Origin: a virus
Lineage: Duplodnaviria > Caudoviricetes
IMG/VR virus record: IMGVR_UViG_3300044627_002262
Coordinates: 1 to 62,281 of that record
Reading direction: 5' to 3' (one strand)
DNA length: 62,281 bases
Below, piece after piece: positions 4,070 to 62,281 of the stretch. The notes under the pieces were generated by a model. The model worked only from the letters and a program-made list of their open reading frames with translations. It was not told where the DNA came from and made no database searches. Within the stretch, counting starts at the first letter, position 1. The number at the start of each line of letters is the position of its first letter. The position numbers and the translations under genes are program-made.

Positions 4070-5071
4070 CTATTTCTTCGACTCTGTGAGTCGAGCGTTG
4101 TTTTTAGTGTAGATTGCCTGCTCTGCCTGCGGGAAGTATCCGCGAGGTTCTGCCCACTCGCGTAGAGTCTCTCCTTTAATGTCATCGCCAATGAGTCTGG
4201 CGATTTCGAGGTAGGTAGCCTGTGTAGCTTGTGCTGCCTCGGCAACGACAGCAATCGGGAATGTCTCGCTATCCTTCACCTTGATCATGCGGAACCCGTT
4301 CACGGGAGTTCCTGCCTCAAGCTGACGCTTTGCCTCGTCCTTTGCCCAGTCCCATAGTTCCTTCTTGAAAACATTAGCCTTCTTCAAGAATGCTCCAAGT
4401 CTGGCAGGGTCTGCCGACAACTCGGCCTTGATGGTATCAATTGATACCTCCTGCGACACGATTGCCTGCGTCTCGGTGACTGGGCCTACGACCTCAACAC
4501 AAGTCGAGCGATTTTTACACCACCCGCAGTACTGGCAACTCTCTGGCTTTTTGTTCGGGTCGGTAGCTTTTGCCAAAATTCGTTCAACGATTGCCTTTGC
4601 TTCCAGAAGGGTGAAGTGATGGGTAACCACTGTCCTCTGGTCAGTGAATAGCAGGTGGAATGTCCACTCGTCTGCGAATTCGCGTTCCATGTTCCCGTAG
4701 GAGTATGCTGCCGCCTGCGCCTCGTAATCGTATATCTGCCCTGTCTTGAAATCGAACGAAGTGCAAATCCGAGATGCTCTGGCATCCTCGGTTCCTTCAT
4801 GCGTCATGCCCGGCGTTACGACCTTGAGCTTGGCTTCGTCGGTCTCGACATTCGCTCCATTGGCGAGTCGCAGGAGTTCCTCAACCCCCCAGAGTGCGGC
4901 ATCAATGTCCCGTTGTTCTGTCAGGTCATTGATTGCCGATTTATCTCCAGCGAGCATCCTGCGTTGCACCCCGTCAATTTTGATCCCCCTGCCTGCCGCA
5001 GGGTTTTTACCCCCTGCGGACTCGAAACAAGGACAAGCATCGAGCTTTGGTAGCGATGAGTGCCTGATCAC
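4070..5071 (-). CDS. PD-(D/E)XK / Cas4-like exonuclease
   Basis: GTED..DFKTG..Q..AY nuclease motifs; N-terminal CP and C-terminal CQYCGWC..C; paired with annealase. Confidence 0.8.
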   Translation of the reverse strand: MIRHSSLPKLDACPCFESAGGKNPAAGRGIKIDGVQRRMLAGDKSAINDLTEQRDIDAALWGVEELLRLANGANVETDEAKLKVVTPGMTHEGTEDARASRICTSFDFKTGQIYDYEAQAAAYSYGNMEREFADEWTFHLLFTDQRTVVTHHFTLLEAKAIVERILAKATDPNKKPESCQYCGWCKNRSTCVEVVGPVTETQAIVSQEVSIDTIKAELSADPARLGAFLKKANVFKKELWDWAKDEAKRQLEAGTPVNGFRMIKVKDSETFPIAVVAEAAQATQATYLEIARLIGDDIKGETLREWAEPRGYFPQAEQAIYTKNNARLTESKK

Positions 5072-5886
5072 TTGATTGCCTCCAGTGCTGCGCCAACGAA
5101 CTTCTCTGGCGTTGCCTTGATGCGAGTGAGAAGGTCTCCCTCTTCAAGGTCGCGCCATGTCTGTCCCTCGGCAATCTTCGACTTTTCGATCAAGAATGCA
5201 TTTACTGCCGCCTCGTTTGCCGATAGCAGACCCTGCCAGTCTGTGTCCTCGACAACCTCTGCTACCTCGGCTGGAGTCGGTACTACCTCGACCACTGCCT
5301 CGACTACCTCGGTTGTCTCGACCAGTGCTGGTGCTGGTTCCGATTTCTTACGCTTTGGCTTGTCCTCTGCTGGAGTCGCAACAACTGCAACAGGTGCTGA
5401 TGGAGCGAAGTCCTGAACTTCTTCGGGAGTATAAAATCCCTGCAATACTGCTGGGTATACGCCGCGCACTCCGTCAGAGATAACACGGGCGCGGAGCATC
5501 TGCCTTGGGTATTTTTTCCAGTTATCTTTACCACCAAGACCTGCCGCTTTAGCGCGATTCATGTCCCAGTCCACCTTGAGACTGCCGCCAGAAGGGTGGG
5601 AGAATGTACCGCTGACGCATTCGTCGGTGTACTCATGCCATTCCACCTTGCCATTGGCCGACTGGAAGCGAGCGAGGATTGCGTCTGCCTTCAAAGCTGG
5701 GCGACCCTGAATAATATGGTACTCGCTGGCTACAGTGCCGGGGTGACGACCCTCTGCCTGCGCGATAATCATTAGACTGACTGCCTCTTCGATCTTGCGG
5801 ATACCGAAAAGACCTGATTTGACGAAGTGGTTTGCCATGATTTCCAGTTCGGAAATCGGTTGCTGGGATTGTACTGCGAGTTGCAT
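5068..5886 (-). CDS. RecT/Red-beta-like single-strand annealing protein
   Basis: HIIQGRP, NWKKYPRQMLRAR, GFYTPEE motifs and acidic tail. Confidence 0.8.
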   Translation of the reverse strand: MQLAVQSQQPISELEIMANHFVKSGLFGIRKIEEAVSLMIIAQAEGRHPGTVASEYHIIQGRPALKADAILARFQSANGKVEWHEYTDECVSGTFSHPSGGSLKVDWDMNRAKAAGLGGKDNWKKYPRQMLRARVISDGVRGVYPAVLQGFYTPEEVQDFAPSAPVAVVATPAEDKPKRKKSEPAPALVETTEVVEAVVEVVPTPAEVAEVVEDTDWQGLLSANEAAVNAFLIEKSKIAEGQTWRDLEEGDLLTRIKATPEKFVGAALEAIK

Positions 5887-10914: not shown

Positions 10915-10988
10915 TGGTTGCAGGACAAGGAGTCGAACCTTGAACTTCAGGTTATGGGCCTGACGAGATACCTTTTCTCTATCCTGCG
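10915..10988 (-). tRNA. tRNA-Met(CAT), initiator (fMet) type
   Basis: Cloverleaf CGCAGGA/TCCTGCA, GAGA/TCTC, TCAGG-CCCATAA-CCTGA, CAAGG-TTCGACT-CCTTG, encoded ACCA; C1:A72 mismatch and A11-U24 pair. Confidence 0.92.
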
Positions 10989-11150: not shown

Positions 11151-14100
11151 TTATTTTTTAGTTTCACCAGTCAAATTGGACAAGGTCATTTTTGCTTTCT
11201 CCAATGATGCCTGAAGTTTTTGCTTTGACTTCTCATCGGTAGCAGTAGCCAATTCGCGTTTAAATTTCGCGACCTTCAACTCTGCTTCTTCCAGTTTTTT
11301 TTCTGCTGCGTTTTCGTCATCTTCTGCTTTTTTGCGAGCGGCAAGCAATGCGACATACTCTTCTGGAGTTTTTGCATTCTGCACACCTGTCAATGCCACT
11401 TCTTCTTCAGGAGTGAGAAGACGAACAATTTCTGTTCTCTTTTTGCCGTCCACTTCAACCAACCGATTAACTTTGAATAGCGATGCATATGCCATGATCT
11501 CGTCCACATTGTCGGCGGCATCGGCATAGTCTGCTGGTTCCGATCCCGAAACTTGCGCTCCGTACAATCCAAACAATTCTTTTTCGTTGTACCAAAGTGC
11601 GGCTTGCATATCTGCGATGGTGATATCGATTCCTTTTCTGCGAAGTTTTTTCTGCGCGATCTCCATCACATCTTGCTGGAAGTCACGCTCCAGATCGGTT
11701 CTCGGAGCGGCAACTGGGTCAGTGCGATTTTCAACCCAGTTCTTTGCTGCTCGTCGCAAGTCGCTTTTAGCTTTGTACTGCCCCTTGCGATACCTGTCCT
11801 CAAGTGCTGTTGCCAACTCCAACATTTTTTGAGGGTCTGCCAGCAACTTGTCGAGTCCATCTCTCGATATGCCGTCCAACTCTGGCTCGTTCATGTAATC
11901 GAAAAACTCTTTTTCGCCATCTTTGTTTATTCGCTTCAGAAGAGGCTCAAATTTCTCGCCAGCACTATTTGCGGAATCTGATCGATACTGCTCCAGAATA
12001 GATTTTCTGAAAGTATCATATTGATTCGCTTCCTTCAGTGGTGCGTGTTGGAAAACATTCCCAAGAATTCTATTCCATGTACGGGTGAACCACAGGTCTG
12101 CCGTGAGCGTTGTGTAGTCGCCATGCAGGTTATTGATGAACGATCCGATCTTAGGCCCAAACACGCTAAACCCAGTCACCATCTGGTCTGCCTGTCCATC
12201 AACTGTTAGAGGCTTGCCTTTGAACCAGAGATTTTTGTTTTTCTTAAAATATCCGTTCCATTCCGAAACAGTCATTTTTTTCCTGAACAATTTATCGAGT
12301 GCCTGAATCCCGTTGTTTTTAATCAACTCATCGAGCTTCAAAAGATTGTTTTCAATCGCACGGGTTTCTCCTCCAAATGTGCCGTACAATTCGTCTTTAA
12401 TCTCTGGCAGTGTCTTTCCGCTTTCGAGCAGGAACTGCACCCTTGCTGCCATCTTTCCGTTCTCAAAAACATTGTTGCCTTGCGATGCTATGCCAAGCAC
12501 CGAGTCAAAGATGAATTCTTTGTCTGCATCGTATGTAGGAGTTCCACGATTCAAGAATGGGAAGAACTCGGAATACTTTTGCTTCATCTTCTTCAGAGCA
12601 GTGTCGTACCACCCGATTGCGTTCGGTGCTTCCGGGTTCTTTGCTGCTCGCTCCATATGCCCTTGGATTTCGTCAACGATTGTCTCGGCAACGATCTGTC
12701 CTGCTCTGGTGCTGTAATCGCCGGGTTGAATGAACCCATCGTCTGCACTGCGTTTCTGCAATGCATACATCAGGTCATTCACCGAGGTCTTCAGCCTGCC
12801 GCCTTTCGTATAGTACGATTCAGGCACTGTGAACTTCTCTGTGCCATCCAGAATTGGAGTCACAGATCGGCTCAACCCACTTGTGGGGTACAACTGCTCT
12901 CGGATGTAATCCGCAACCTCCTGACCTAATCCGTAGCGTTCTGCGAATCGGTCTGGGTCGAAGGTGAACCCTTCTCCTGCGAGGGATTTTGCGTACGGGA
13001 TAAGAACTGAATCGATACCCCTTCGGAGTAGTATGGGGAATCCTCTGGCAAGTCTGGTATCTTGCTGTATTGCCTTTGGAATTCCTCCCTGCTGATCTTG
13101 TGTATTTTCTTCATTTATTGATTCTCCTTTTATCCAATCTGGTACTTTTAGACTTCCATCATCTGCTGTAAAGTCTGAAGTCGTGTCATAGTAAAATGAA
13201 TCGACAAGAGTTTTATTGATATTTTTGATGTTTGATGCTTTTTGAATTTCAATAAGTTTGTCTTCAAATTTATCAATATTATCAAAATTTGCTGCCTTGA
13301 TGCCCCTTCCATCAACAGTCACTGACAACCCGTCAATACCCACTTCTTTTGCTTTTTTAAAGGCATTGAGTATTTGCTCTTCGGTTAGTTTTTTGTCATG
13401 GACAAGGTAGACAGATGGTGCGCCTTCGGTTAGTCCAATACTTGGTTTCCATGCGATGCCAGCATCCTGCGTCATCAAGACTGACAACCACTTTGTGACC
13501 GACTGCGACTGCTCCCATGTCATGTTTGGAGCGGAGAAAACAAAACTTGGTTCAGCCTCAAATTTCCATGTACCAAGAATGTTGTCGAATTGGATGCCAG
13601 TGAGTCCTGCCGCTTCAGCAATAAACTCTTTGAATTTTTTGGTCTTGAAGAGCGTTGCGACTGCCCCCTGAAGGGATTTTAGCCCGACACTTACATCTTG
13701 TTCTTGTTTCTTTACAAGAGCGACATACGCTTCGTATGCGGCAAGGTCTTTTGCGTATTTAGCTTTATCTTCTTTTGAAGCATCCTGCGGTATATCGGCA
13801 GGCTTCTCGACAGGAACAGGCACTTCTCGATTGTCCACTGGGAACTTGAATGGCGCAGGAACCATGCCCCGATTCATCAAGTTTATTGACCTTGTCAATC
13901 GGTCAACCTCGGCAACCTGTGCAGCATCATTCAAAGTAAAATCCCGATCTGGATTTTCCATGAACTCGTTTAGCAAGTCGGCTATTTCTTCCGACCTTTG
14001 GATGTCATCTTGGGATTTATCTTCTTTATTTTTGATATCGATATTTTCCCAATAGAGATTGCCGATATCGAGTAGTGCATCTCGTTTTTTGTTCAACTCA

Positions 14101-17100
14101 TCATTGCGAGGAGTCAACACTTCAATCAGGTACTTTTTTCGATCCTGCGATAGTTCCAATGTGGGAGTGAGATCGGCAACTGTGGTGTACCCAAATCCGT
14201 ACTTGCCGGGCTTGCCGCCGATCACCACAGAGAAGTCGCCAGCATCTGCCTGCATCGTCCTCTCAACGGGAGTTGGCTTCTTCGGCAGTACAACCATGCT
14301 CAATGGTTTTTCAACCTGCTGCTGCTGTTCTGGAGCGGTTGCTTCGCTCAATGGCAAGCCTTCGCCTGCTGGCATGAATCGAATGTCTAACGAGGTAGTC
14401 TGGAACCTCTGCGAGAGAGGGATTACATTGCCTTCGCCATCGTATGTTACTGGGTCTGCTGATTTGATTTGCTCTGGGTTAAATACAGCATAGTTGATTG
14501 GTGCGCCCATCCCATCAGTTACACGAATAGCGTCTTGACCTCTTTCTTTTGCTTTTGCGATAGCGCGAACTTCATCATATGAACGAACAATTCCTTTTCT
14601 AACATTTTCAGCCTTTAAAAATACAGGCATGACTTTCCCAAAAACAGATGCTTCGTTTATATCTGTTGCTACAAAAATAGCACCACCAAGAGCAGAATTA
14701 GGTTCAAAAACATTAAATGGAGATTGTGATCTTGTTCCGTGGAATCCTTTAATATTATATCCAGCCCTCTTTGCCGCCTCATCCACCATCTTCTGCAACT
14801 GCGATTGGTTATCCTCTGGGTTTTTGGCAAAGTTGAGGTACTCTGCATCTGACACTGCTGGCATGAACTGCAACTGCCCTGCACTGACAACTTTTGCCAT
14901 CTCTGGGGTGATGTTTACTCGCCAGATTGGGGTTTGTTTAGATTCTGGTGCTTTATTATATGCATTGAAATCTTCGTAATCAGTTGGTTTGCCTTTTGGA
15001 GTTTCTATTTCAGACTTCTCAACCTTGCCCCCCATCTTGCCAACATATTTACCGATCTCTTTTGGAAGGATTTGATCGTAGAATCCTTTCATGCCTTCGC
15101 CACCGACTTTAAGGTCTGCATTTTCAAGGACGCGCCACCCGTTTTTATCTTTTTCTTGCGCTAAAAGTTTTTGAGCGGTTTCTTTTCCAATATAATCTGC
15201 TAATTTATCAGGGGTAATTCCAGTTTGAATGATTGGCATTTCTCTTCCCTTTTCGCCAGTTAACCTTCCCCCTTGTTTGTCTTCATTGTATTCGATGCGA
15301 TCAATCTGCTTACTCAAATCATATCGTTCAGCTTGCGTGTCTCCAACAGTCCAACCGATCCATTGCTTGCCTGACTCTACGGCATCGCGCAATGCGCGTT
15401 TAAAGAGTTGTAGTGACCAATCTTTTCGGAATGGCGCGTCTGGGATACCTTCTCTTAAAGTTGTATTTCTTGCTTGTCTTGCTTGATTCCTCAAAGAATT
15501 AAGTTCTGTTAATAAATCAGGGGTGAGAGGAGTTGGTGCTTCATTATTCAGATACTCCATACGAGCCTGTTGCTCGTTTGTTAAATCTTCAAAAGATTTA
15601 TCTTCCAAATACCCCTTCTCCCTTCCTGCCTGATGCCTGTCAGACTGCAATTCTTCGATGAACAATCCATCGTTGCCTTCAGCATCTGTGCGCTCATTCA
15701 AGCGCATATGCGCTACATAGTTGTGAACATTTGGGAAGTGGGATGAGGTGTATTCTCCAGCGCGGTTGAAGCGTGAGCGCACTTTATCCATCGCCTGACT
15801 GCGTTCTTGTGGTGTCCAAGATTCCCACTGTTTGCCAGCATCCATCTTAGCCTGATCCTCAATGTCTGATTCAGCGATTCCGCGATTTTTCTCTGGCATT
15901 GCCATCACAACTTCACGATAGTTTTCACCACCGGAGAGTTGGTATTTAGCGTATTTTGGAGCAGGTAATTTTGATGCGTTATCTATTGCATTTTGTAATG
16001 CGAATGGCAGTTCATCAAATTCAAGTGGATCATCAAACTCGTCGTAAAATGCTGCCTCACCATATTGATCTTCAATTTTTATTCTATAGGTATCAGCAAT
16101 ATCTTTAACCGAAGCATCTTCTCCAAGTGTCACTTCTTCAAATTTGACCTGACCTTCGTTGCGAAGATAGTCCATCAGTTCAACCACAGGAACCTTGCCG
16201 TTGTTCTCGCCTGCGAGTCGGTCAATGGCATCCAGTACGCCTGACCATTTGACCTCTTCCTGCTTCACATTCTGCGGGTTCGTAATGACTGCCTTCAACT
16301 GCTCTGGCGTTGCTGTTGCGCCTTGGAATTTGCGTTGGATTTCTGTTTGCAGTTTGCTCTTGAATCCACGCTCGCCAGATGGTGCTTCTGCAACTGCTGG
16401 CATGAACTGCGTGATCGGGCCTAACGATTTATCACCTTTATAAAGAATCTTAATCTTTGAATCATCAAAGATAACATAATTATATGTTTTTGGAACACTT
16501 GTTATTTGTTCAGCAGTAAGTCCAATCTGTTTTTGTTTGGTTTGAGTTATCCTATCAGTAAATTTAATACCATCGAATCCCATCGCTTTTAATTGCATGG
16601 AGGCTTCTTTAGGATTACCAATATATTCGCTTAATGCATCATAATAATCTCCAACTGTATCAATTCTAACTGGGAAAGCAGTGTCTATTTCAATATTTTT
16701 TTTCAAATCGTCTACTTTATCTCGAAGTCTTGAGTCTATATTGCTATTCCAATCAAGAATTTTATCTTCATCTATATCAAGATCAACTTTATATTGATAT
16801 TGAAGAGGAACAAATTTATCTATTTCTTTTCTATTCTCTGCAAAGTAAAGACCCCATCCATACACTTGTTCTTTATTCCCAGAATTAATAAAGTCTAAAT
16901 TAAATTTATCAAAGTCTGCTCTTGATGCATGGAATGCAGGCAGGTATTGCAACCCAGCAGGCGCAACAACTGCGTTTTCAAATCGAGTTCCACTCTGGAT
17001 GCGATCTTTGAGCGATTGGCGATATTGCATCACATCGTTTGCTGCCGCCACGATTTGCTCGTCAGTGATATCCGGCGAGATTTGCAATGCGCCTGCTTCG

Positions 17101-20100
17101 TTCACAACGCTACGGATGTACTCTGGAAGCGTCTGGGTTGCGTTATCGACCCTGCCTTCGTTGTAATTGTCCACTGCCGCCAGAATGAGGTCTTGCGGAG
17201 AATTCATCATATCCACCTCGGTGGTTTCTGGTGCTTCTACGATCTCCTCGGTTGCTGCCGCCTGATCTTGTGCCTGCGATTCCAGTTGCTGGTAGATTTT
17301 TTCCAGTTCGGTTTCGAGTGCTGGAATGATCGGACTACGACCCCCGTCTGCGTAGAGTTGATCGAGTTTGGATGAAAGTACCTTGGCGATGTCTTGCGGC
17401 GGCACAGTGCCGTCCTGTGCGTCCAGAATAGCCAATTCTGCCTCGGTCTCGGCATCGATGTCCGAAACGATCTCCTCTGGTTCAAGCGAGGCGACATTTT
17501 CAGGGTCAAACATCGACACGATCTGAATCCTCGGCATCTGGTCTTGTCCCTGCACCAACTGCAATGACTCGGTTGGGAGCAAATCGTCCATCTGGCGCAA
17601 CTCGCTTTCGAGTGCATCAATCTCGCCAGTTGCCATTGCGCGGCGAACACGGGTAGCAGTGACGCTACCATCGAATCGGTTCTGAACCTCCTCGGCAGTC
17701 ATCGGTGCTGCCATCGGGTTAACCGCTGGCATATAATTTGTGGTTAGGTAGCCATAATTTATCGGCAACTTTTGCGAGGGTGACTCCGAAAAATTATTGA
17801 TGCGATCAAGCCGACGAGACCGAATTACAATGTCAAGATTGTCTTTGCCTCTTGCCCTTGGAAGTGTGCTGCGGTCAGGGTTGGATTCTTTGGTCTCTGC
17901 GTTGTATGCATTGAAAAGATCGTTGATCTTATTCTTCATTTTGCCTGCGATGTATGCGTCAGGATGAAGTCCAGTCTCGCCTTTTTCGCCCCTTGAATGA
18001 TTATCAAGTAGCTTTATTAAAGAGTCCCAGAATGCACCTGTATCGCCATTCCAAGGTTGCAAGTTCTCTGGCTTTTTATCTGACCACGCTTGCATTTTAT
18101 CGTATAGGCGACTGATAGAAATTGTGGTGAGCGCAAAGTTGCCGTCCTTCGTGAGTTGAAACCCGATTGGCACTTCATCGCGAATTTTTGGAGAGAGTGC
18201 TTTGTACCTGCCATTCAGCAGTGATGCTTGGTACTCCATGACAACGCGAGTGCCATCATTCCGCGCCATGAGTTCGTTGAAAAACTTGGTCATGCGCTTC
18301 AGGTTTGGCGAAACCACTTCGTTTGGCAGTGCCATGAATGCCTCGATTTGAGCGGGAGACATAACCCCTCGATAGTTTCCATTTCCAGTGTCTGAAAGTC
18401 TAATGCCAGACCCGTCGTCTTTCGCGGAATCAATCGCATTTTGGATAATTTCTGTCCGCTTCCTTGCGCGAGCTTTCATCTCACGATTTGTCAAGATAAT
18501 CGGACTGCCGTCTGGTTTTCGAGCAATGCGCGTGTCGGTCTCAAATGTAGTTCCGTCTGGCATCGAGCCAAATGTAATTTCAGGCCCAAGTGTCACCACA
18601 TTGCCATTGGCATCGACCAACTGACCCCCCTGCGTCCTGTATACATCAACGAATGGATCAATTTTCGCACCAGCAGGAACAACGATTTCGGTGACACTAC
18701 CATCAGGCGCAGTCGCTTTGATGATCTGCTCCTTCTCGAAAAAGTCTGCGTGTCGATATTTATTTTGGAGCGCAACACTGCCCAGAACCTTGGTCAACGG
18801 AATGTCTGGTTCATCGGATTCGCGACTCTGCTGGACAGTCATTGTGCCGTCAAAATCTTTTAGACCTCTCTGGTACTGACGCACCATTGCAAGCGTCTCT
18901 GGTGACATCTGCGCTCCAAGAACAGAAGAGTATCCACCAGCATTGTCAAAAAGGATTCCGTTTTTTCGGAGCGTCTCTTTCAGTTGCTTCAGCCTACCAC
19001 TTTTGGTCTTGACCTCAAACCAGTCCATGACATTGCGACCAACATCATCGAGCGATGCGCGAGTTCCACCTGCATACTCGCCAGTGGCAGCAGCAGTCTC
19101 TGCAAGAATTTCGTCTTTGATGTACGCTCGCATCTTCTCGACCTCCCCGCCGAATTGAGCGTAGAAACTCGCCCCATTGTCGCTCGGAGACATCATCTTT
19201 GCGTACTGCGTAGCGTACCTGTCCAAGTCTTCGTCAGAGTAAATTCCCTGCTGGTAAACCTCGACACTACCATCATCGTTTTTGATTTTCTGGTCGAACA
19301 ATTGACCACGCAACGGAGCGAGCATCTTGTTTACTTCTGCGAACTGTTGCACTGCGTGTTGAACCTCATGCTGGAGCGTGTGGCGCAAATTTAGACCCTG
19401 CGAGGTCATGTGCTTGATTAGGTCTGCATTGATTACAGCAGTTGCTCCCTGCTGGTTGATTCGGCGCAAATGTGGAGGAACGAATCCCTCTGAATTCGGG
19501 TCAGCATTGTCTTCCTGCAATGCGAATCCACGCGCAGATTTTGCGCCTTCAACATCGTTCTGGAACTTCTGCAAGAGTTGCCGTGCCTCAGTGAGCTTTT
19601 GACTGTCAGTCTCGGTGAGAGATGGAATGCCAGTGAGCAGATTGATAGTAGTCTCTGCTTGTTTCAATGAGTCACCATAAAGGTCACGGAAAAATTGATC
19701 AGCGTTTGCTGGATCAAGAACGGCAATTTTAACTCCGCGAAGTCCAGCAACTCCACCTGTGGATTGTGCAAGATCGTATGCGTCAATGAATGCGAGTGCG
19801 GTCTGGCGAGTTGCCTCTGCCTGCGTTTCTGGAGTTGATTTGGAAAGTGCTTCCCGTTGCTTCAGGAACCCGTCAATCTGTTTTTGATCAAAGGCAGCAT
19901 CTTCTGGGTTGATTTGAGCGTCTCGCTTCTTTTCGAGACTTGCAATGCTGGTCTCGATTGCTGCTTTGCGACTCTCGATGTTTGATAGATCGGCAATGTT
20001 TTGCTGAATCTCTGGAGATGCTTGCGCCATGAACCGCTTGATATCGGCATCTTCATCGCGGCGATAGGCAGCAGGGTCTGGAGTGACAAGATTGGTGATC

Positions 20101-21602
20101 TTTTCTGCCATCGTCGTGCGAGGATCAATCAGTCCACCAATTCGCTCGTACGATCTCGTCCCTGCCAGACTGCCAATGCCAAATCCTGTTCCAGCACTGA
20201 ATCCGAGGTCTTCTGCCGTCTCGATGTCTGGCAGACCCATTACGACATTCATCGCGGCAGCATTAATGCCCGGTTGAATCAACGCATTCGATTGGCGAAT
20301 CGTCCAGTCGGCTAACTTTGCTCGCGCAACTCCACCTTTTCCTTGCGCCCCAAAAAGTTTTTTTGTCAGGTCACTGGAATCTATTGCTTGCCCTGCTCGC
20401 TCAACCATTCCCCTTCTTCCTGCCGTTCCGGCAATGTCAGCTTGCTTTGTGATGTCCTTGATCACCCTTGCAGTTGCAGAAACAGGTTTTGCAACGCTAA
20501 CAACGGGTAGGATTGCAGTGTTTACAGTACCTTTGATCCAAGTGTCTGGATCATTTATTGCGTACTCGCCAATTTTTTTTGCGCCAGTCTGAAGAAGTTC
20601 AGTTCCCTGAAGGACTTTGTTTGCGGCGTATTCAGTTCCTGCCGCAAGTTTGGAAGTGCCTTGCATTGCAAAGTCTCCTGCCTTGTTCATTACTGGAGCG
20701 GTTACTTTGGAAAGAGGCTTTAAAACTGCTCCGCTCAACCTGCCTCCACCGGGGATAGCCACAGGTGAAACAAACTCTCCCAGCGCAGAAATATTCTGGT
20801 TGATCTGGTCTTTAGTAAGACCCTGATCAAGCATGGTCTGGATATAGTCTTGCTTTACTTTTTCGACTTCTTCAGGAGACAATCCCATCTTCTTTGCCTC
20901 GTACTCAACATATCCCTGAATCAGCGGATTTTGAGAAAGAAGTGCGGCAACTCGGTCTGGATTTTGTTCTGTTTCTTGAGCTTCCAACTGACGCATGGTT
21001 TGTCTGTTTTGCCATGCTCGGAAGCGTTCTTCTTCACTTTTCCCAAACAATTTGTCAGTAGTAGCACTGCCAAACATTCCAAATCTAACAGCAGCATTTA
21101 CTGTTTCTTCAATATCTTTTGCTGCACCAATTCCAAGAGACCTAATTGCCTCTTCGCGTTCTTTAAATACTTTCTTTGCCTCTTCTGAATCTAAACGACC
21201 ATAGCCTCCAGAAAGTGCAAAAGCAGCAGGCTGAACAACTGCTTTGTTTGCTAACTCAACTGCGCCTGATGCAGTTTGCCCAATGATATCTGCTGCTGCT
21301 GGAATAAATGCTCCTACTGCACCAGATGCTTTGTCCGCAAGACTGCGTTCGTCTTCTGCTTTGAACAGTTTCCGTTGGAGTTTGTCAGATAACTTAACCC
21401 CTTCAGACTGCATCTTCTTGATTTCATCGATGCTTAAATCGTCTTCTAATTTAATGCCTTCTGGAACTTCTTTAAATGACTTGGGAGGTTCTAATACAGC
21501 ACCTTCTGGTATTTCTTTAAATGACTTGGGAGGTTCAGGTTCCAACCCGATAACTTTAACTCCTTCAGGTGGTTCTTTAAACGATTGTTGCGGTTCAGCC
21601 AT
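11151..21602 (-). CDS. Giant polyvalent (probably ejected internal virion) protein with zincin, LPD23-like, ART-PolyVal-like and HhH-GPD-like modules
   Basis: 3483 aa; HEVQH..DEILAE; AFHAS..FDKF..GWGLYFAE; FHGT..VMPVFLK..YAVFNPEQIKS; FGPKIGSF..TADLW..QAALW; last large gene of the structural block. Confidence 0.85.
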   Translation of the reverse strand: MAEPQQSFKEPPEGVKVIGLEPEPPKSFKEIPEGAVLEPPKSFKEVPEGIKLEDDLSIDEIKKMQSEGVKLSDKLQRKLFKAEDERSLADKASGAVGAFIPAAADIIGQTASGAVELANKAVVQPAAFALSGGYGRLDSEEAKKVFKEREEAIRSLGIGAAKDIEETVNAAVRFGMFGSATTDKLFGKSEEERFRAWQNRQTMRQLEAQETEQNPDRVAALLSQNPLIQGYVEYEAKKMGLSPEEVEKVKQDYIQTMLDQGLTKDQINQNISALGEFVSPVAIPGGGRLSGAVLKPLSKVTAPVMNKAGDFAMQGTSKLAAGTEYAANKVLQGTELLQTGAKKIGEYAINDPDTWIKGTVNTAILPVVSVAKPVSATARVIKDITKQADIAGTAGRRGMVERAGQAIDSSDLTKKLFGAQGKGGVARAKLADWTIRQSNALIQPGINAAAMNVVMGLPDIETAEDLGFSAGTGFGIGSLAGTRSYERIGGLIDPRTTMAEKITNLVTPDPAAYRRDEDADIKRFMAQASPEIQQNIADLSNIESRKAAIETSIASLEKKRDAQINPEDAAFDQKQIDGFLKQREALSKSTPETQAEATRQTALAFIDAYDLAQSTGGVAGLRGVKIAVLDPANADQFFRDLYGDSLKQAETTINLLTGIPSLTETDSQKLTEARQLLQKFQNDVEGAKSARGFALQEDNADPNSEGFVPPHLRRINQQGATAVINADLIKHMTSQGLNLRHTLQHEVQHAVQQFAEVNKMLAPLRGQLFDQKIKNDDGSVEVYQQGIYSDEDLDRYATQYAKMMSPSDNGASFYAQFGGEVEKMRAYIKDEILAETAAATGEYAGGTRASLDDVGRNVMDWFEVKTKSGRLKQLKETLRKNGILFDNAGGYSSVLGAQMSPETLAMVRQYQRGLKDFDGTMTVQQSRESDEPDIPLTKVLGSVALQNKYRHADFFEKEQIIKATAPDGSVTEIVVPAGAKIDPFVDVYRTQGGQLVDANGNVVTLGPEITFGSMPDGTTFETDTRIARKPDGSPIILTNREMKARARKRTEIIQNAIDSAKDDGSGIRLSDTGNGNYRGVMSPAQIEAFMALPNEVVSPNLKRMTKFFNELMARNDGTRVVMEYQASLLNGRYKALSPKIRDEVPIGFQLTKDGNFALTTISISRLYDKMQAWSDKKPENLQPWNGDTGAFWDSLIKLLDNHSRGEKGETGLHPDAYIAGKMKNKINDLFNAYNAETKESNPDRSTLPRARGKDNLDIVIRSRRLDRINNFSESPSQKLPINYGYLTTNYMPAVNPMAAPMTAEEVQNRFDGSVTATRVRRAMATGEIDALESELRQMDDLLPTESLQLVQGQDQMPRIQIVSMFDPENVASLEPEEIVSDIDAETEAELAILDAQDGTVPPQDIAKVLSSKLDQLYADGGRSPIIPALETELEKIYQQLESQAQDQAAATEEIVEAPETTEVDMMNSPQDLILAAVDNYNEGRVDNATQTLPEYIRSVVNEAGALQISPDITDEQIVAAANDVMQYRQSLKDRIQSGTRFENAVVAPAGLQYLPAFHASRADFDKFNLDFINSGNKEQVYGWGLYFAENRKEIDKFVPLQYQYKVDLDIDEDKILDWNSNIDSRLRDKVDDLKKNIEIDTAFPVRIDTVGDYYDALSEYIGNPKEASMQLKAMGFDGIKFTDRITQTKQKQIGLTAEQITSVPKTYNYVIFDDSKIKILYKGDKSLGPITQFMPAVAEAPSGERGFKSKLQTEIQRKFQGATATPEQLKAVITNPQNVKQEEVKWSGVLDAIDRLAGENNGKVPVVELMDYLRNEGQVKFEEVTLGEDASVKDIADTYRIKIEDQYGEAAFYDEFDDPLEFDELPFALQNAIDNASKLPAPKYAKYQLSGGENYREVVMAMPEKNRGIAESDIEDQAKMDAGKQWESWTPQERSQAMDKVRSRFNRAGEYTSSHFPNVHNYVAHMRLNERTDAEGNDGLFIEELQSDRHQAGREKGYLEDKSFEDLTNEQQARMEYLNNEAPTPLTPDLLTELNSLRNQARQARNTTLREGIPDAPFRKDWSLQLFKRALRDAVESGKQWIGWTVGDTQAERYDLSKQIDRIEYNEDKQGGRLTGEKGREMPIIQTGITPDKLADYIGKETAQKLLAQEKDKNGWRVLENADLKVGGEGMKGFYDQILPKEIGKYVGKMGGKVEKSEIETPKGKPTDYEDFNAYNKAPESKQTPIWRVNITPEMAKVVSAGQLQFMPAVSDAEYLNFAKNPEDNQSQLQKMVDEAAKRAGYNIKGFHGTRSQSPFNVFEPNSALGGAIFVATDINEASVFGKVMPVFLKAENVRKGIVRSYDEVRAIAKAKERGQDAIRVTDGMGAPINYAVFNPEQIKSADPVTYDGEGNVIPLSQRFQTTSLDIRFMPAGEGLPLSEATAPEQQQQVEKPLSMVVLPKKPTPVERTMQADAGDFSVVIGGKPGKYGFGYTTVADLTPTLELSQDRKKYLIEVLTPRNDELNKKRDALLDIGNLYWENIDIKNKEDKSQDDIQRSEEIADLLNEFMENPDRDFTLNDAAQVAEVDRLTRSINLMNRGMVPAPFKFPVDNREVPVPVEKPADIPQDASKEDKAKYAKDLAAYEAYVALVKKQEQDVSVGLKSLQGAVATLFKTKKFKEFIAEAAGLTGIQFDNILGTWKFEAEPSFVFSAPNMTWEQSQSVTKWLSVLMTQDAGIAWKPSIGLTEGAPSVYLVHDKKLTEEQILNAFKKAKEVGIDGLSVTVDGRGIKAANFDNIDKFEDKLIEIQKASNIKNINKTLVDSFYYDTTSDFTADDGSLKVPDWIKGESINEENTQDQQGGIPKAIQQDTRLARGFPILLRRGIDSVLIPYAKSLAGEGFTFDPDRFAERYGLGQEVADYIREQLYPTSGLSRSVTPILDGTEKFTVPESYYTKGGRLKTSVNDLMYALQKRSADDGFIQPGDYSTRAGQIVAETIVDEIQGHMERAAKNPEAPNAIGWYDTALKKMKQKYSEFFPFLNRGTPTYDADKEFIFDSVLGIASQGNNVFENGKMAARVQFLLESGKTLPEIKDELYGTFGGETRAIENNLLKLDELIKNNGIQALDKLFRKKMTVSEWNGYFKKNKNLWFKGKPLTVDGQADQMVTGFSVFGPKIGSFINNLHGDYTTLTADLWFTRTWNRILGNVFQHAPLKEANQYDTFRKSILEQYRSDSANSAGEKFEPLLKRINKDGEKEFFDYMNEPELDGISRDGLDKLLADPQKMLELATALEDRYRKGQYKAKSDLRRAAKNWVENRTDPVAAPRTDLERDFQQDVMEIAQKKLRRKGIDITIADMQAALWYNEKELFGLYGAQVSGSEPADYADAADNVDEIMAYASLFKVNRLVEVDGKKRTEIVRLLTPEEEVALTGVQNAKTPEEYVALLAARKKAEDDENAAEKKLEEAELKVAKFKRELATATDEKSKQKLQASLEKAKMTLSNLTGETKK

Positions 21603-21603
21603 T

Positions 21604-23379
21604 TTATTTGCTTAATTTAAATTCAGTTCCATCCCAAACATATTTATATCCATCTTTTACAAAAGAAGTAACACCTTTTTCATATTTAGGTTTTTCAGAT
21701 TGAATATTTTGAAATTTAGTTGGACTTTCAACATTCATTACTTCTTTTTTATCTGCTTCAAGACCAGAAATGAGTCTTGCTGTAGACTCTCTCATGGATT
21801 TTATGTTTTCTAAAAATGTAGCTTCATCCATGTCTGGATCAACTGATCCTTGAAGTGATGTAAGCATTTTTAATTCAGAATCCGATAATGCACCAAGAGA
21901 CCCTCCTTGATTTTTTAATGCAACCAATTCATCAAATCCAACAATTCCTTTTACTGTATCAAGTAAACTTCTTGTTGTCCTTGCGTCATTTGCAAAAAGA
22001 TTGTACTTCATAAGACCTGAAATACCTCCAGCACCAGCAAAAAGATATCCCGGTGCTATTTTTTCAATTTGTTCTAATGTCTTTTTAAGAACTTCTGCCT
22101 TTTTTATATTATTATCAAATGTTGCAATTTGTTGTTTGACAGGCATTTTAGGCTTATATACATATGTTTCCTTGCCATCAGCATCTCTTATTGATTCAGT
22201 AAAATATCCTTCTGGAGCAGTTTTTGCTGGAGGTGCTTCTTCAGAAACTTCAACTTCTACATAGTACAATTTGCTGCCTTTATCTCCTTTTACAGCATCA
22301 ATTTTTGCTTTAACTCCAAGTTTTTGTTGAAGAATTTTCTTTGCCATATTAGCTTCCGCTGGGCTTTTATATGGTCTTGCAGTCAATTGGTTTTCAATTT
22401 GGAATTTGTATTCAGCTTCACTTAATTGAACTGGTTGTGTAGGTTCAGGAGTTGCTGCAAGCGCAGGTTCTGCCTGTGGAAGCGCAGGCTCAACTGGAGG
22501 AGTTCCAGCAAGAGGTTTTTCTTCTGCTCCAGACACTGGCACAAGTTGACTTGTTTCACCAGAAAGCGTGATTTGTCCTACAGTCTCTGGAAGTGTGCCT
22601 TGTTGTCGAGGTGGTTGCAACCCTTCCAAACTATATCCTGCGATTTCTTGCACTGGCACAGGAGTAACTGCGCTAATGTCAGAAAATAAATTAGGTTCAG
22701 CAGGTGATGCTGCAACACTGCGATTTTTAAAAGCATCACGATAAGCAACAAAATTAGGATTTTCGCTTTGCCCAAAAATAGACTTTTGCGAAACGCCAGC
22801 AGGCGCAGCAGGAGCAGTTGTTGGAGTAGCAGGAGCGGCAGGCGCAGTTGTTGGAGTAGCGGGTGAAGTTGCTGGGACTTCTTCTATTTTTGTTTTAAAA
22901 TCTGGTAAATTTGAAAATTGACTAAAATCCATTTCAAAAGGTTCCAGTGGCGCATTTTCATCTACTTCAACAGCACTTTCATTTTTTGTTTTTGCTGCCG
23001 CAATTTGCTGCGTTAACAAATCACTTCTCTGCTGCTGATAAGCAGTTTCTGCTGCTGTTGGCGCGGCTTTAATTTTAGCAATCTCCATTGCTCGATCATG
23101 CTCTAATTTTGAATCTGCCGTTGCCTTTGCCTCTTGCGCCTTCGATGTCAATGCGCCAGTAACTCCACTCAATGCGGAGGTAACGCCTTTAACAATGCCT
23201 TCAGTCAGTGCCTGCCTGCCCTTCCAGAATCCCTCGGTAACAATCTCTGGATTTTGCTTTAGAAATTCCATAGGAGTGTTTGCGGCAAATCGCAAACCCT
23301 CCCCTCGACTTTGAATGGGATTGATACTTGCCAAGGCAGTCGATGCCTTGGGCGCATAAGAGAATGAAAAGGCAGTCAT
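21604..23379 (-). CDS. Putative ejection / internal virion protein
   Basis: 591 aa; Pro/Ala/Thr linker, GGSLGALSDSELKML, C-terminal DGYKYVWDG; directly upstream of the giant protein. Confidence 0.65.
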   Translation of the reverse strand: MTAFSFSYAPKASTALASINPIQSRGEGLRFAANTPMEFLKQNPEIVTEGFWKGRQALTEGIVKGVTSALSGVTGALTSKAQEAKATADSKLEHDRAMEIAKIKAAPTAAETAYQQQRSDLLTQQIAAAKTKNESAVEVDENAPLEPFEMDFSQFSNLPDFKTKIEEVPATSPATPTTAPAAPATPTTAPAAPAGVSQKSIFGQSENPNFVAYRDAFKNRSVAASPAEPNLFSDISAVTPVPVQEIAGYSLEGLQPPRQQGTLPETVGQITLSGETSQLVPVSGAEEKPLAGTPPVEPALPQAEPALAATPEPTQPVQLSEAEYKFQIENQLTARPYKSPAEANMAKKILQQKLGVKAKIDAVKGDKGSKLYYVEVEVSEEAPPAKTAPEGYFTESIRDADGKETYVYKPKMPVKQQIATFDNNIKKAEVLKKTLEQIEKIAPGYLFAGAGGISGLMKYNLFANDARTTRSLLDTVKGIVGFDELVALKNQGGSLGALSDSELKMLTSLQGSVDPDMDEATFLENIKSMRESTARLISGLEADKKEVMNVESPTKFQNIQSEKPKYEKGVTSFVKDGYKYVWDGTEFKLSK

Positions 23380-25018: not shown

Positions 25019-25290
25019 AAATTCTCCTTTCTCCTCGCTTCTTTGCAAAGTTCTGAACCAACAACAAAATTAGCACATGATTTAGGTCGATTCGGATAGA
25101 CCATGCAACAAACAGTCTCGCCAACTTTTCCTTCCAAAGCGATGCATCTGTTGTTGTTTGTTTTCATTAGCGGGTAATCCTCTCGCTGCATTTCCACAGG
25201 GATGCCTGTTGCGTCTGAACGATCTCTTCGGAGAATCGGCCATGACCATTTAAAACAACAACACGCGCCACAGGTTTGACAGTCATACAT
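25006..25290 (-). CDS. YkgJ-family cysteine-cluster (Zn/Fe-S) protein
   Basis: CQTCGACC..RCIAL..CMVYPNRPKSC..C; start reassigned to MYDCQ. Confidence 0.85.
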   Translation of the reverse strand: MYDCQTCGACCCFKWSWPILRRDRSDATGIPVEMQREDYPLMKTNNNRCIALEGKVGETVCCMVYPNRPKSCANFVVGSELCKEARRKENLWVE

Positions 25291-26131
25291 TTTTCTTTTT
25301 AGTCCAATCCACGGGTCGGAATCCAAGATCGTTAATAACTATGTCCTCGTAAGGCGCAAGGTGCGAAACATTGGTTATTTTCGCCTTTAGTTTCGGGCAG
25401 TCTACATACTTGCCTTGGTGACGATCCACGCAATTGAAACAAACTGGGTAGAAGTCAGCATTAAGCGACTTATCAGAATTGTTTCCCCATCCTTTTTCGG
25501 TTTTGATGTAGCGTGTCTCGTCAGGTTCAATGCCAGAGTACTCAAGGTAGTCGTAAACATCTTTGTCAGTCCAGTCTCGGAGCAGGTATAGGCTAACTGG
25601 CGACCCGTCTGCATGACGAATGTGAGTAGTTACTGCTACCTCGCCTTTGATCAAGTCTGTGTCAGTGTTTTTTGTGCCAATGTAGACCGCATTCCACGGC
25701 CAATTAAATGTCCCTGTAGGACGCAATAGAAAGTCGTTAACGCCACACAGGAAGTCCTCGCCTTCTTTTGGTCGTTCTGTTCCCAACGACATGACCATAC
25801 ACTTTTCACCCCATTGAAAGTATTTGAGCATATCGAACCGCACCTTGCCAGTCTCGGTGTCAGGCCCATCAGTCAATGCTACTCGCATCGGTGGATACTC
25901 ATAGATTGCAAGTTTCCATTTTTTGATCAGTCGGTCTGAATAAGCGTAGCGTTCACGGAATTTAGGTTCGCGGAATTGAACGACAGGCAGTTCAATTCCT
26001 GCGCGGAATTTGAGTATATGAAGCAATGCCGTGGAGTCTTTGCCTCCAGACCAAAATACAACGCTCTTCGGCCAATTTGTAGCCCAGAGTCGCGCCATTT
26101 CAACTGTCTTATTCAGGAGTTCAATATTCAT
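25283..26131 (-). CDS. PAPS-reductase-family PP-loop protein
   Basis: WSGGKDS PP-loop, YIGTK..D, LRDWTDKDVYDYL, C-terminal CFNC..C. Confidence 0.85.
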   Translation of the reverse strand: MNIELLNKTVEMARLWATNWPKSVVFWSGGKDSTALLHILKFRAGIELPVVQFREPKFRERYAYSDRLIKKWKLAIYEYPPMRVALTDGPDTETGKVRFDMLKYFQWGEKCMVMSLGTERPKEGEDFLCGVNDFLLRPTGTFNWPWNAVYIGTKNTDTDLIKGEVAVTTHIRHADGSPVSLYLLRDWTDKDVYDYLEYSGIEPDETRYIKTEKGWGNNSDKSLNADFYPVCFNCVDRHQGKYVDCPKLKAKITNVSHLAPYEDIVINDLGFRPVDWTKKKNV

Positions 26132-27656: not shown

Positions 27657-29804
27657 TTATTCAGGAGGTTGGCAAGGATTCTCCGCTCGATATTGCTGTG
27701 CAGCAGCATTTGCTGCCTGAAGTGCCAATGTACTCGCCTCTGCCTCTGCGTGTTCGTAGCTAATGTAAGATAGGAATGATGCCTCTGCTGTTGCTGCAAT
27801 AGCAGGGGAAGGAGAACCTAATGGACAAATTAATGTCACTGTTTTGTAAACACTGGCATACCACGATCTCTGTTGCCCGTTCGTCGTATCATATGCGTTC
27901 GGTAGAGTGTCAATTGTAATGTTGTTCCCATCCTGACCAACCACGCAGTATTTTTTTTCGTCTCGTTGAGGTACGCCAAGTGATTTTGTCGAGTATGGAT
28001 CGATGTAAATTCGCACGATCTCAACCCCCATTTGACCGCACCATTCTATCAGTATGCTGAATGCTTTATCGATGTCGATTGTGAGGTCACTTTCGCAGGT
28101 GGTGTAGTCGATGGTTCTTTGGGATGATTCGGTAATCAACCTGCGATACTGCGAATTCAAAAATCCCAGTTCCTCGATCTTATCTTGGTACGGAGTGCCT
28201 TTCCACTGCACATCATCGGTAACAGCAAGAAGGCGTTTTTTGAGAACCTGCTTGTGCTTACCCTTGCTCCCTCGGAATGCAACTGTGACATCTACAACGC
28301 CACCGATTTCGCAAGCCTCGATTTCAGAGTAGATGAACTGCTTCAAATCCATTGCATCACCCAGCATCGCAGTCTCCATCTGGCAGTAAATGCGATTGAT
28401 TTTAGGAGTCGTCGTGCCGTCCGAATTTGTGTCGAAGTACGAATCGTACTTTTGAGGTGCAAAAGATTCCCAGATGTGGTTGTAAGACCCATCACTGGTT
28501 GCTGCGTAGTCAACACTAAAATGAAAGCACCTTTGCTGTCCTCCCACAGTGCCTGTAGTCCACTCAACAGGTCGAGTTCCTGTCCATACACCACACCAAG
28601 CAGGAATGCGTTGCTGCGACCATTCTGACGCAGCAGCATAGTCAAGAACCATCGTCTGCGAGTTCAGCTTTTCGAGATACGGAACACTGACCAAAATGTA
28701 GTTTTCAAATGAAGTGCAGCAGATGCCTTTTGTATTGCCTGACAAATACTGCTTCGTCCTCGCCATCTCGACATCTTTGTAGATAATCTGCGACGACAGA
28801 TACGATGCTGCCGCCACATCCGCAGCAATCAACCCACCCTGCGAGTACCACCACATTTGACCTGCCTGAAAAGTGATTGACTTGCCTGCGATACATCCAA
28901 CAGTCGGGAAAAGCGTGTTCTGGAAATTGGCAGTCGATGTCCACTGGGAACGATCAAGAATTCCAGAGGCGAGAGAGAAGGTTGCTCTATCAGTAAACAC
29001 AATCAATCGGGTTGATGTATCCTGACCGACATAGCTAACCATTCCAGTAACTGTCCTCGAAAAGGCAAAGTCTCCGCGACCAGCACCACTCTTGCGTTCT
29101 TGCCATGAGGTCGGGTCTCCGAGATCGCTTGCCAACACAATATTTTTATCAGCAATCCAAAGTCTGTTTCCAGAAAACGCCATCCAGTATCCAGTCGGGA
29201 TCGATGCGGTTTGCGTACCAGTCTTGTTCGACCCATCCCAGTATGCTGGAGCAGAAACGCCATCTTGGATGAAGACTGCTCGATGCGATGGAGTCACAAT
29301 CTCATCTTTACCCGTCGAAAGATTCGCAGATTGCGTAGCGAGGCAGAAGACAAACTGATCGACATCTGGATCGAGTGAGATGTTTGACAATTTGTACTCC
29401 GACCAATCTTTGGGTTGAGTCAAAGGGAATGGAGCGAAATAAACCGATCCTGAAACAGCAAAGACCATGTAGGGTATTTCTTCGGCAATAACCCCCTCGC
29501 CTTCGACATTAAAAATTTTTGCAGGAGTCGTAATCGTGCGACCATTGATGACTTCAATTTTTGCAGACTCTTTTTGCTTATTCGCAGCAAAGAAAATTCC
29601 ACCCTGAAAGTTTCCAGCAGGCAATGAGAGGCGCATTGCTTGGCCGGGACGAGTCTGCACGATGCCGCCTCGCACTTGGACATTGACCCCCCATTTGAAT
29701 TGATTTTCAGGAAGTGACCACGGATTGCGGACAGAATTTACGCCAGCAAACCACCCAGAGGTTGCCTTGACCAATCTGCCAGATGATATCTGCTCGCTTT
29801 TCAT
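27657..29804 (-). CDS. Tail tubular B / nozzle-like protein (P22 gp10 / T7 gp12 type)
   Basis: 715 aa; N-terminus FAGVNS..LPENQ..GVNV..GIVQTRPG; beta-rich; synteny. Confidence 0.65.
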   Translation of the reverse strand: MKSEQISSGRLVKATSGWFAGVNSVRNPWSLPENQFKWGVNVQVRGGIVQTRPGQAMRLSLPAGNFQGGIFFAANKQKESAKIEVINGRTITTPAKIFNVEGEGVIAEEIPYMVFAVSGSVYFAPFPLTQPKDWSEYKLSNISLDPDVDQFVFCLATQSANLSTGKDEIVTPSHRAVFIQDGVSAPAYWDGSNKTGTQTASIPTGYWMAFSGNRLWIADKNIVLASDLGDPTSWQERKSGAGRGDFAFSRTVTGMVSYVGQDTSTRLIVFTDRATFSLASGILDRSQWTSTANFQNTLFPTVGCIAGKSITFQAGQMWWYSQGGLIAADVAAASYLSSQIIYKDVEMARTKQYLSGNTKGICCTSFENYILVSVPYLEKLNSQTMVLDYAAASEWSQQRIPAWCGVWTGTRPVEWTTGTVGGQQRCFHFSVDYAATSDGSYNHIWESFAPQKYDSYFDTNSDGTTTPKINRIYCQMETAMLGDAMDLKQFIYSEIEACEIGGVVDVTVAFRGSKGKHKQVLKKRLLAVTDDVQWKGTPYQDKIEELGFLNSQYRRLITESSQRTIDYTTCESDLTIDIDKAFSILIEWCGQMGVEIVRIYIDPYSTKSLGVPQRDEKKYCVVGQDGNNITIDTLPNAYDTTNGQQRSWYASVYKTVTLICPLGSPSPAIAATAEASFLSYISYEHAEAEASTLALQAANAAAQQYRAENPCQPPE

Positions 29805-55100: not shown

Positions 55101-55341
55101 TGCTCTCCTCCCACTTCCCCACAGGACACTGCTCGGTTGCCATAACAGTCTTTATCTCCATGTTGCATCCGCATTCTCGGCATTTGCCCATGCCTCGATA
55201 TCCAGCAGCATCGAACATCTCGCAGTCAGCACAGATGCGTAATCTCCGCGCCACCTCTGCCTCATCCACGCATGGCAAGCCTGCCGCTACAAACGCAGCA
55301 GCACTCGACATAAAGTTCTTCGCCTTCTCAAATATGCTCAT
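55093..55341 (-). CDS. Small Cys-rich protein (CP.GKW type)
   Basis: [20 protein letters not shown]; start reassigned to MSIFEK. Confidence 0.75.
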
Positions 55342-60458: not shown

Positions 60459-60659
60459 TTATTCTGCTTTGTTTGCTGCCGCGATATTGTTCAGTATGTG
60501 CGATTCAAATTCTTTCATTTTTGCACCGATAGCAGTTGTGAAATCGACTGCCGTCTGGTGGTCTTTGATCGGAATTACGATGCGTGTACTTACTGGTTTA
60601 GTGTTCCGCTTGCAGGTTGTCACCCACATTTTGATTTTGGTTACTTTTGGCTCTTTCAT
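60459..60659 (-). CDS. Hypothetical protein
   Basis: 66-aa ORF overlapping the upstream stop. Confidence 0.55.
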   Translation of the reverse strand: MKEPKVTKIKMWVTTCKRNTKPVSTRIVIPIKDHQTAVDFTTAIGAKMKEFESHILNNIAAANKAE

Positions 60660-62204: not shown

Positions 62205-62281
62205 TTCGCTCCCTCCTTGAGTTGATCGAGTTCGGCACTGAGGATACCTTTTGCATACGAATGTTCGCCGTATATTTCTGG
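62094..62281. repeat. Terminal direct repeat, right copy
   Basis: Matches 1-188 with 3 substitutions (62221, 62222, 62225). Confidence 0.95.

Follow-up and report, generated by a model that had tools for sequence, protein, structure and literature searches.

A single gene takes up about 17% of the tailed-phage genome held as IMG/VR virus record IMGVR_UViG_3300044627_002262, a stretch of 62,281 bp that we analysed in full and refer to as the window. This gene (P0001; 11151..21602, minus strand) is open over 3483 amino acids, as an earlier note made from the sequence alone had stated, and its 385-kDa product is punctuated by five copies of a short peptide, [FY][ML]PA. The peptide occurs in great excess over expectation among related proteins, lies at the borders of exchangeable cassettes, is associated exclusively with one conserved core, and is conserved in its residues as well as in its codons. 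We favour the view, to which we give slightly less than an even chance, that an injected polyprotein is processed at this peptide, probably by a zincin-like domain of the same chain, and that the peptide serves in addition as a socket for cassette exchange.

According to this model, the giant protein is built like beads on a string. Its core, some 1290 residues long and with an HExxH...E zinc-peptidase-like signature, is followed by exchangeable modules, namely an acidic, a weakly ADP-ribosyltransferase (ART)-like, a GNAT-like, an ART-PolyVal and a large C-terminal module. Each border is marked by the peptide [ILT]-[QN]-[FY]-[ML]-P-A, located where a folded part ends or in a flexible linker, and this peptide would act as a recognition signal at the protein level, most likely as a proteolytic site for the protein's own zincin-like domain. 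Cutting at the motif would split a giant virion-borne protein into separate anti-host enzymes, either in the capsid or after ejection, and the same 12-17 nucleotides would form the joint where related phages swap cassettes. One option for the bond cut would be F|M, which would yield products starting with Met-Pro-Ala; a cut at Q|F would expose Phe. A Met-Pro-Ala start would avoid a bacterial N-degron. A broader proposal is possible but more doubtful: that an uncultured family of tailed phages carries a virion-borne giant protein with its own zinc protease, a lineage-tuned [FY][ML]P cut code and a cassette socket at the DNA level, and so releases programmable anti-host enzymes on infection.

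The border peptide and its core family

All five copies of the motif were found exactly where the earlier note had placed them. From the N- to the C-terminus they are NYMPAV (YMPA at amino acids 1290-1293; 17724..17735), which forms the end of the core, QYLPAF (YLPA, 1553-1556; 16935..16946), QFMPAV (FMPA, 1733-1736; 16395..16406), a second QFMPAV (FMPA, 2246-2249; 14856..14867) and RFMPAG (FMPA, 2409-2412; 14367..14378), where these and all further coordinates in the giant gene refer to the minus strand. When the giant protein was shuffled, [FY][ML]PA appeared with a mean of 0.098 copies and a maximum of three, and none of 5000 shuffles reached five. A six-frame scan of the window, using frames of at least 100 codons, recovered as further [FYW][MLI]PA matches only two on the plus strand that are antisense to genes and one FIPA, and thus no other real gene in the window with the motif.

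The FIPA sequence lies within the giant protein itself (amino acids 99-102; 21297-21308) in a conserved hydrophobic stretch. We considered it as a sixth site and left it uncounted, given its conserved hydrophobic context without the usual flanks. By a simple pattern, F[ILF]PAA is present in 11 of 121 relatives, and some FLPA sequences located about 80-96 amino acids from the N-terminus were counted as motif.

Full-length relatives of the giant protein comprise 296 proteins of 1915-6096 amino acids, and the best 120 of these were combined with the query to give a set of 121. This set contains 316 copies of [FY][ML]PA versus about 10 expected; 24 of the 121 proteins have none. A sequence logo from 239 distinct contexts reads [ILT]-[QN]-[FY]-[ML]-P-A-[E>V,D,G], followed by sequence rich in E, P and A. 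Seven consecutive positions are biased, and the swaps are conservative (F200/Y39, M182/L57 and Q131/N47).

The core (amino acids 1-1289; 17736..21602) is common to all full-length relatives, and its homology to them ends at the first motif. A library-wide search with amino acids 640-1300 returned 341 proteins at E <= 0.001, and in most of the best 150 of these the match ends at query residue 652-661, which is at or just past the motif. Many relatives, some with as little as about 25% identity, have a core end of the form LP[IV][DN]Y[GE]K...N-[FY]-[ML]-P. Among 235 core proteins, the shorter pattern [FY][ML]P was observed 704 times downstream of the core end versus 102.8 expected (6.9-fold), and 64 times upstream of it versus 92.4 expected (0.69-fold). 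The downstream density is about two per 1000 amino acids in every identity bin, including that below 30%. Distant lineages keep F-M-P and surround it with flanks of their own, such as AR-FMP-G, PQ-FMP-[GD], S-FMP-T and TK-YLP-K. Judged from these alignments, what this large family conserves is really [FY][ML]P, with flanks that differ by lineage, a point that the earlier note had missed.

An informative comparison is provided by open reading frames (ORFs) in IMG/VR that encode the most widespread cassette, designated cassette C below. Those that also encode the core contain 86 copies of [FY][ML]P versus 16 expected, whereas those that lack the core have 31 versus 30.3 expected, which is no enrichment; large and untruncated core-less ORFs likewise have 18 versus 17. 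Across the 80 cassette-C ORFs, the strict motif is present in 19 of 22 that bear the core versus 6 of 58 that do not. The sequence comparisons thus assign the motif to the core family and not to the cassettes, and such an association is what a protease and its site would be predicted to show.

Cassettes, junctions and the HExxH core

Relatives gain, lose or swap modules exactly at the motif, which supports the earlier note in placing it at module borders. Cutting the 121 proteins after each motif produced 437 segments, which were clustered at >= 70% mutual coverage. The resulting architectures consist of the core, then cassettes that vary in number and order, and then one of several C-terminal modules. 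Cassette D, for example, is absent, replaced or joined by another cassette in close relatives: P0002 lacks exactly this cassette, P0003 has a different cassette in its place, and P0005 has cassette D plus that other cassette. When 53 queries were compared by BLAST with all 121 proteins, 6756 of 19436 internal endpoints (35%) fell within 15 amino acids of a motif versus 4.6% expected, so homolog breakpoints do track the motif, and the refuting outcome that the earlier note had named, breakpoints with no relation to it, did not arise. Listings of the junctions reveal that each flank belongs to the cassette on its own side, upstream or downstream, and that the switch occurs exactly at the motif.

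Natural genes split at the motif were also sought, and in 80 loci there is no ORF starting with MP[AE] beside a giant ORF. We looked for the loci of three core-only representatives, of which two were not found and one proved to be a fused form. Two motif copies lie 5-35 residues apart just past the core in P0142, P0158, P0210, P0227, P0228, P0234 and P0243; these pairs may be remnants of cassette loss, or redundant sites. In one distant lineage (P0130, P0131, P0133, P0140 and P0145), a small conserved C-terminal tail, [FY]MPGYNP[RQ], follows the last junction, and P0134 has the related tail FMPAGKNPRY.

Cassette A (16947..17723; segment cluster 5) is the acidic module recognized previously, and amino acids 1294-1556 indeed have an isoelectric point of 4.05 and a net charge of -33. 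Cassette B (16407..16934; segment cluster 2) had been labelled LPD23-like, but Pfam gives no LPD23 for amino acids 1553-1733 and instead a sub-threshold match to ART-PolyVal (23.8 bits, cutoff 31.2). Cassette D (14379..14855) does carry the ART-PolyVal domain ascribed to it, an ADP-ribosyltransferase-like family (PF18760; amino acids 2284-2383, 41.8 bits versus a cutoff of 31.2) that is the sole Pfam match in the giant protein. The C-terminal module (11154..14366; 1071 amino acids, segment cluster 6) had been called HhH-like, a label that the search of amino acids 2413-3483 does not bear out, given no Pfam family at E <= 1. This module is strongly conserved among its own relatives, other relatives have different C-terminal modules, and in ESM Atlas it matches unnamed viral clusters along with DUF7178 at 33% of members.

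Cassette C (14868..16394; segment cluster 1), the most widespread of the cassettes, is characterized by EE.QSD, PDAPF and GFYD motifs. Among the 50 structural matches listed by VIA-align for its predicted fold, all are of GNAT type (Z 7.6-9.5), and these include the tRNA-acetylating toxins AtaT and TacT. The alignments cover 109-151 residues spread over model residues 262-771, where the predicted local distance difference test (pLDDT) is about 70-80. Foldseek matches are weak and there is no Pfam GNAT match; from the model, the cassette may be a GNAT domain with long insertions. Stand-alone versions of about 700 amino acids exist in other phages, where they end soon after a domain-intrinsic GQPLF, without FMPA at that place.

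With ART-PolyVal, a second weakly ART-like module and the GNAT-like fold of cassette C in one chain, the giant protein qualifies as polyvalent as Iyer et al. 2017 (PMC5512222) used the term. Precomputed Pfam assignments for its relatives add GNAT, ParB, C5-methylase, kinase-PolyVal, SLT and LPD domains to the effector families.

The earlier note had also considered that the motifs might fall inside folded domains, and the structural models place all five in or at the edge of low-confidence stretches. In an AlphaFold model of amino acids 1481-2452 (mean pLDDT 56.7), the second junction (fragment residue 73) is within a stretch of pLDDT <50 at residues 54-87, the third (residue 253) within one at 250-266, and the fifth (residue 929) within one at 918-972. 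The fourth (residue 766) lies within a long low stretch at 763-905, in which cassette D is unresolved. In a second model, which covers the core (amino acids 640-1300; 661 residues, mean pLDDT 74.5), the first junction occupies fragment residues 651-654 and pLDDT is <50 from residue 652. None of the five motifs is inside a confidently folded part and each adjoins folded parts, as expected of a conserved site exposed in the linkers that separate functional units. At two of the five, the low model confidence may reflect a shallow alignment.

The core carries the HEVQH (amino acids 745-749; 19356..19370) and the downstream DEILAE (from amino acid 830) that had been pointed out before. HExxH is present in 105 of the 106 proteins that align over the site, the exception being P0112. 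In two alignments (A3, 64 sequences; A4, 45 sequences), H745, E746 and H749 are invariant, as are E756 (19335..19337), which is located seven residues past the second His and is a candidate third metal ligand, and E831 (19110..19112) within DEILAE, an alternative candidate for that ligand. A conserved HExxH with a downstream Glu is the pattern of a gluzincin-type site. In the core model a strand precedes the HExxH, which itself lies in a helix.

Searches for known relatives of the core and the entire protein were otherwise sparse in their returns. Neither AlphaFold model had a Foldseek match in the PDB at E <= 0.001, and VIA-align of the core model gave weak WYL-like rows (Z 6.5) and helical noise. 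ESM Atlas offered weak leads for the core below 0.9 (ATLF and M26). The giant protein has no match in PHROGs or NCBIfam, a PDB sequence search with it returned nothing meaningful, and the core was not found in the genome contigs searched. A complex prediction that combined A4 residues 40-205 with a 35-residue junction peptide and zinc received a score of 0.02, which speaks neither for nor against binding.

Two minor features of the core deserve mention. Amino acids 1044-1289 (17736-18473) have a weak likeness to WYL domains (CapW, BrxR and PafBC; Z 6.3-6.5 over about 90 aligned residues), too weak for a fold match to be trusted. Near the N-terminus (amino acids 6-50; 21453..21587) there are three copies of a short repeat of the SFKE.PEG type, and in relatives this position is occupied by different short repeats (LPEGF.. 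and PPEDELD). These repeats are possibly a repeated docking peptide.

Processing site, recombination joint or docking peptide

Several results weigh against a cleavage site. Only 136 of the 235 core proteins have a strict [FY][ML]P no more than six amino acids from the mapped end of the core. Judged from sequence ends, the core-end copy may also be the structural end of the core, because five representatives, P0167, P0173, P0181, P0220 and P0222, terminate 1-5 residues past the motif. In distant relatives of cassette C that lack the motif, a domain-intrinsic GQxxF tail aligns with the Q..F part of the motif, and the association between motif and core is confounded by shared ancestry. The AlphaFold model that covers four of the junctions is poor. 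No Pfam model for a peptidase or for MPTase-PolyVal matches amino acids 501-900 at E <= 1, and neither Foldseek nor VIA-align identified a peptidase with the core model, a query of 661 amino acids for which other parts dominate the lists. Cultured relatives were found neither by megablast of the giant gene nor by a terminase search, and tblastn with amino acids 501-2412 gave just two weak cassette-C matches. Finally, the codons of the motif are more uniform than the background. Across loci, TTC encodes the motif Phe in 29 of 33 cases (background 45%), CCA the Pro in 32 of 39 (background 49%) and CAG the Gln in 15 of 19 (background 39%). When different junctions of one gene are paired, their Phe codons agree in 54 of 59 cases (control 0.52) and their Pro codons in 70 of 91 (control 0.40). 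Copying of DNA therefore accounts for some of the conservation.

The zincin proposed in the earlier note consequently holds as a signature, with its strictly conserved HExxH and two downstream Glu residues, but not as a member of a peptidase family. We call the core domain zincin-like by its sequence pattern and make no family assignment, because Pfam (with no peptidase family in a scan of the whole protein), Foldseek and VIA-align gave no peptidase match.

The codon data bear on a different explanation, in which the motif is chiefly a joint for recombination and a linker between cassettes, and the protein remains uncut and works as one multidomain protein. The 12-17 nucleotides of the site (CAG TTC ATG CCA GCA G) would then provide microhomology for exchange between co-infecting phages. 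The sequence TTCATGCCAGCAG is common to three of the five junctions in the window, and two have 17 nucleotides in common. Together with the uniform codons, both across loci and within a gene, the exact fall of the cassette switch at the motif, and the RecT-like annealing protein and exonuclease that the phage encodes, this is as expected of a joint, and the short intervals between paired motif copies in distant relatives resemble the scars of cassette loss. There is also a precedent for a giant virion protein that stays whole, since the main text of Iyer et al. (PMC5512222) describes the virion RNA polymerase of N4 as packaged unprocessed. What a joint does not account for is that the residue pattern is kept where the junction DNA has diverged (AAT TAT ATG CCA GCG and CAA TAC CTG CCT GCA versus CAG TTC ATG CCA GCA), that F/Y, M/L and Q/N swaps are conservative, that F-M-P persists where its flanks and the rest of the protein are at 25-45% identity, and that the motif is under-represented in the core. 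We therefore regard recombination as the main function of the motif as unlikely. The two roles are not mutually exclusive, and because the motif codons are conserved the site is probably also a recombination joint. The earlier note had missed this codon-level conservation, which points to a second role; the codon uniformity and the RecT-like protein fit cassette exchange at the joint. On the sequence data, the DNA-level role does not replace the one at the protein level, which stands because the residue pattern is maintained with diverged codons, the swaps are conservative and F-M-P survives deep divergence.

If the motif is cut, the enzyme might nevertheless be another one. A prohead or host protease could act at the motif, leaving the HExxH domain to a different task, such as an attack during entry on a host protein or the cell wall. 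The lack of any peptidase family or fold for this domain leaves room for such a division of labour. Some phage tail or ejection proteins, such as T5 Pb2, have an HExxH motif and muralytic activity. Effector roles for zincin-like domains are also listed as an alternative in the main text of Iyer et al. (PMC5512222). Against this, no prohead protease was recognized among 10 structural-region ORFs with Pfam or among 30 ORFs with PHROGs, many of these ORFs being matchless; the motif excess is confined to proteins with the HExxH core; and no other real gene in the window has the motif, which is therefore not a general capsid-maturation site. We consider an external protease quite improbable. Slightly less probable again is a docking function, in which one short peptide per cassette would bind a component of the capsid interior, portal or ejection apparatus, a host factor or a chaperone. 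That the motif is short, linear and conserved, and lies at cassette ends where the sequence is flexible, would suit a dock, as would the representatives that end a few residues past the motif and so might use it as a C-terminal tail. It is hard to explain, however, why the same dock would be placed on unrelated folds or would track the HExxH core, and lineage-specific flanks around a fixed F-M-P resemble the evolution of protease sites.

Three further candidates were rejected. An internal translation start at the motif ATG was dismissed because Leu takes the place of Met in 57 of 239 contexts, and visual inspection of a few codons showed nothing like a Shine-Dalgarno sequence. Self-cleavage by Asn or Gln cyclisation was set aside because position -1 is often Arg or Ser. 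The motif was also compared with the sliding-clamp-binding consensus, and its Pro and Ala occupy positions where that consensus needs hydrophobic residues.

A processing site read in cis would have several partial parallels. The proposal that zincins process polyvalent proteins was made in 2017 by Iyer, Burroughs, Anand, de Souza and Aravind (PMC5512222), whose main text names no cleavage sites and does not use the word 'linker'. The protein described here resembles theirs as a giant multidomain product of a probable phage late or virion gene block, with an ART-PolyVal domain and an HExxH domain that could process the polypeptide. It differs in having a defined [FY][ML]P border tag restricted to one core family, and in a core that matches no Pfam MPTase-PolyVal model. 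A full-text literature search for QFMPA found no paper, and a search of the literature on processing of such proteins likewise found nothing.

Other systems can be regarded as functional analogues. MARTX toxins carry a string of exchangeable effectors that is reshuffled by recombination, and a cysteine protease in cis cuts the flexible linkers by a simple residue rule. They are similar in having exchangeable effector domains and a protease in cis at the linkers, which in our case is a proposal; unlike the phage protein, they are secreted bacterial toxins with a cysteine protease activated by a cofactor from the host and with proven cleavage, whereas here the domain is zincin-like and cleavage is inferred. 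Polymorphic toxins have border motifs as well, such as VENN in CdiA and PxxxxDPxGL in Rhs, the latter being a self-cleavage site. In these too a short peptide marks variable modules and doubles as a recombination joint, but there is one border before a single C-terminal toxin, whereas the phage protein has several borders and many kinds of cassette. Viral polyproteins (for example, those cut by picornavirus 3C) and phage head processing (T4 gp21 and phiKZ gp175 motifs) provide short linker consensus sequences, lineage-specific variation of sites, and several proteins from one precursor or trimmed internal head proteins. Unlike phage head processing, no prohead protease or capsid gene with the motif was found in the window, and the putative enzyme is inside its own substrate.

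The 2017 proposal that polyvalent proteins are cut named no site, and the borders reported here can be placed with single-residue precision and are conserved in several hundred proteins. These borders are tied to one HExxH core, and therefore the processing hypothesis is directly testable. If cleavage occurs, cassette borders could be read from sequence alone in metagenomic phages, so that giant ORFs could be turned into candidate anti-defence enzymes, and the family would offer a natural design for multi-cargo phage delivery with plug-and-play effectors. Even if cleavage fails, the family still illustrates clearly how cassettes are shuffled within one gene at a fixed joint.

The phage record and its gene neighbourhood

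The window is the whole virus record, to which CheckV assigns a completeness of 98%. A terminal repeat of about 190 nucleotides is present at both ends (1-190 and 62093-62281) with a small mismatch zone, and given this repeat and the completeness rating the genome is probably complete. All ORFs examined are on the minus strand, including those for the terminase, tail fibre, spike, large virion proteins and the RecT-like/exonuclease pair, and the giant gene lies in the same block as the terminase, tail fibre and spike genes. Immediately upstream of it is an ORF of 591 amino acids (21604..23379, minus strand) with a weak match (E 3.6e-08) to phrog_2534, which is annotated as 'released from the phage upon host infection'. 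From this gene order and the polyvalent-protein precedent, we infer that the giant protein is packaged among the ejected virion proteins and injected with the DNA.

The recombination module of the phage comprises the RecT-like single-strand annealing protein (5068-5886, minus strand) and the exonuclease paired with it (4070-5071, minus strand), which could promote the exchange of cassettes at short joints. Another very large structural gene (29804-34303, minus strand) encodes a protein of 1499 amino acids that matches several virion structural PHROGs, and a tRNA-Met gene (CAT; 10915-10988, minus strand) is located immediately downstream of the giant gene.

Some gene content offers a hint of the host. 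The minus strand encodes a glycosyltransferase (55338-56459) that is 67-69% identical to Synechococcus myophage enzymes (53 records), a ferredoxin-like ORF (60656-61228) and a short PAPS-reductase-like match (25283-26131), and cassette C matches a Dolichospermum phage. Together, these sequence matches hint at a cyanobacterial host.

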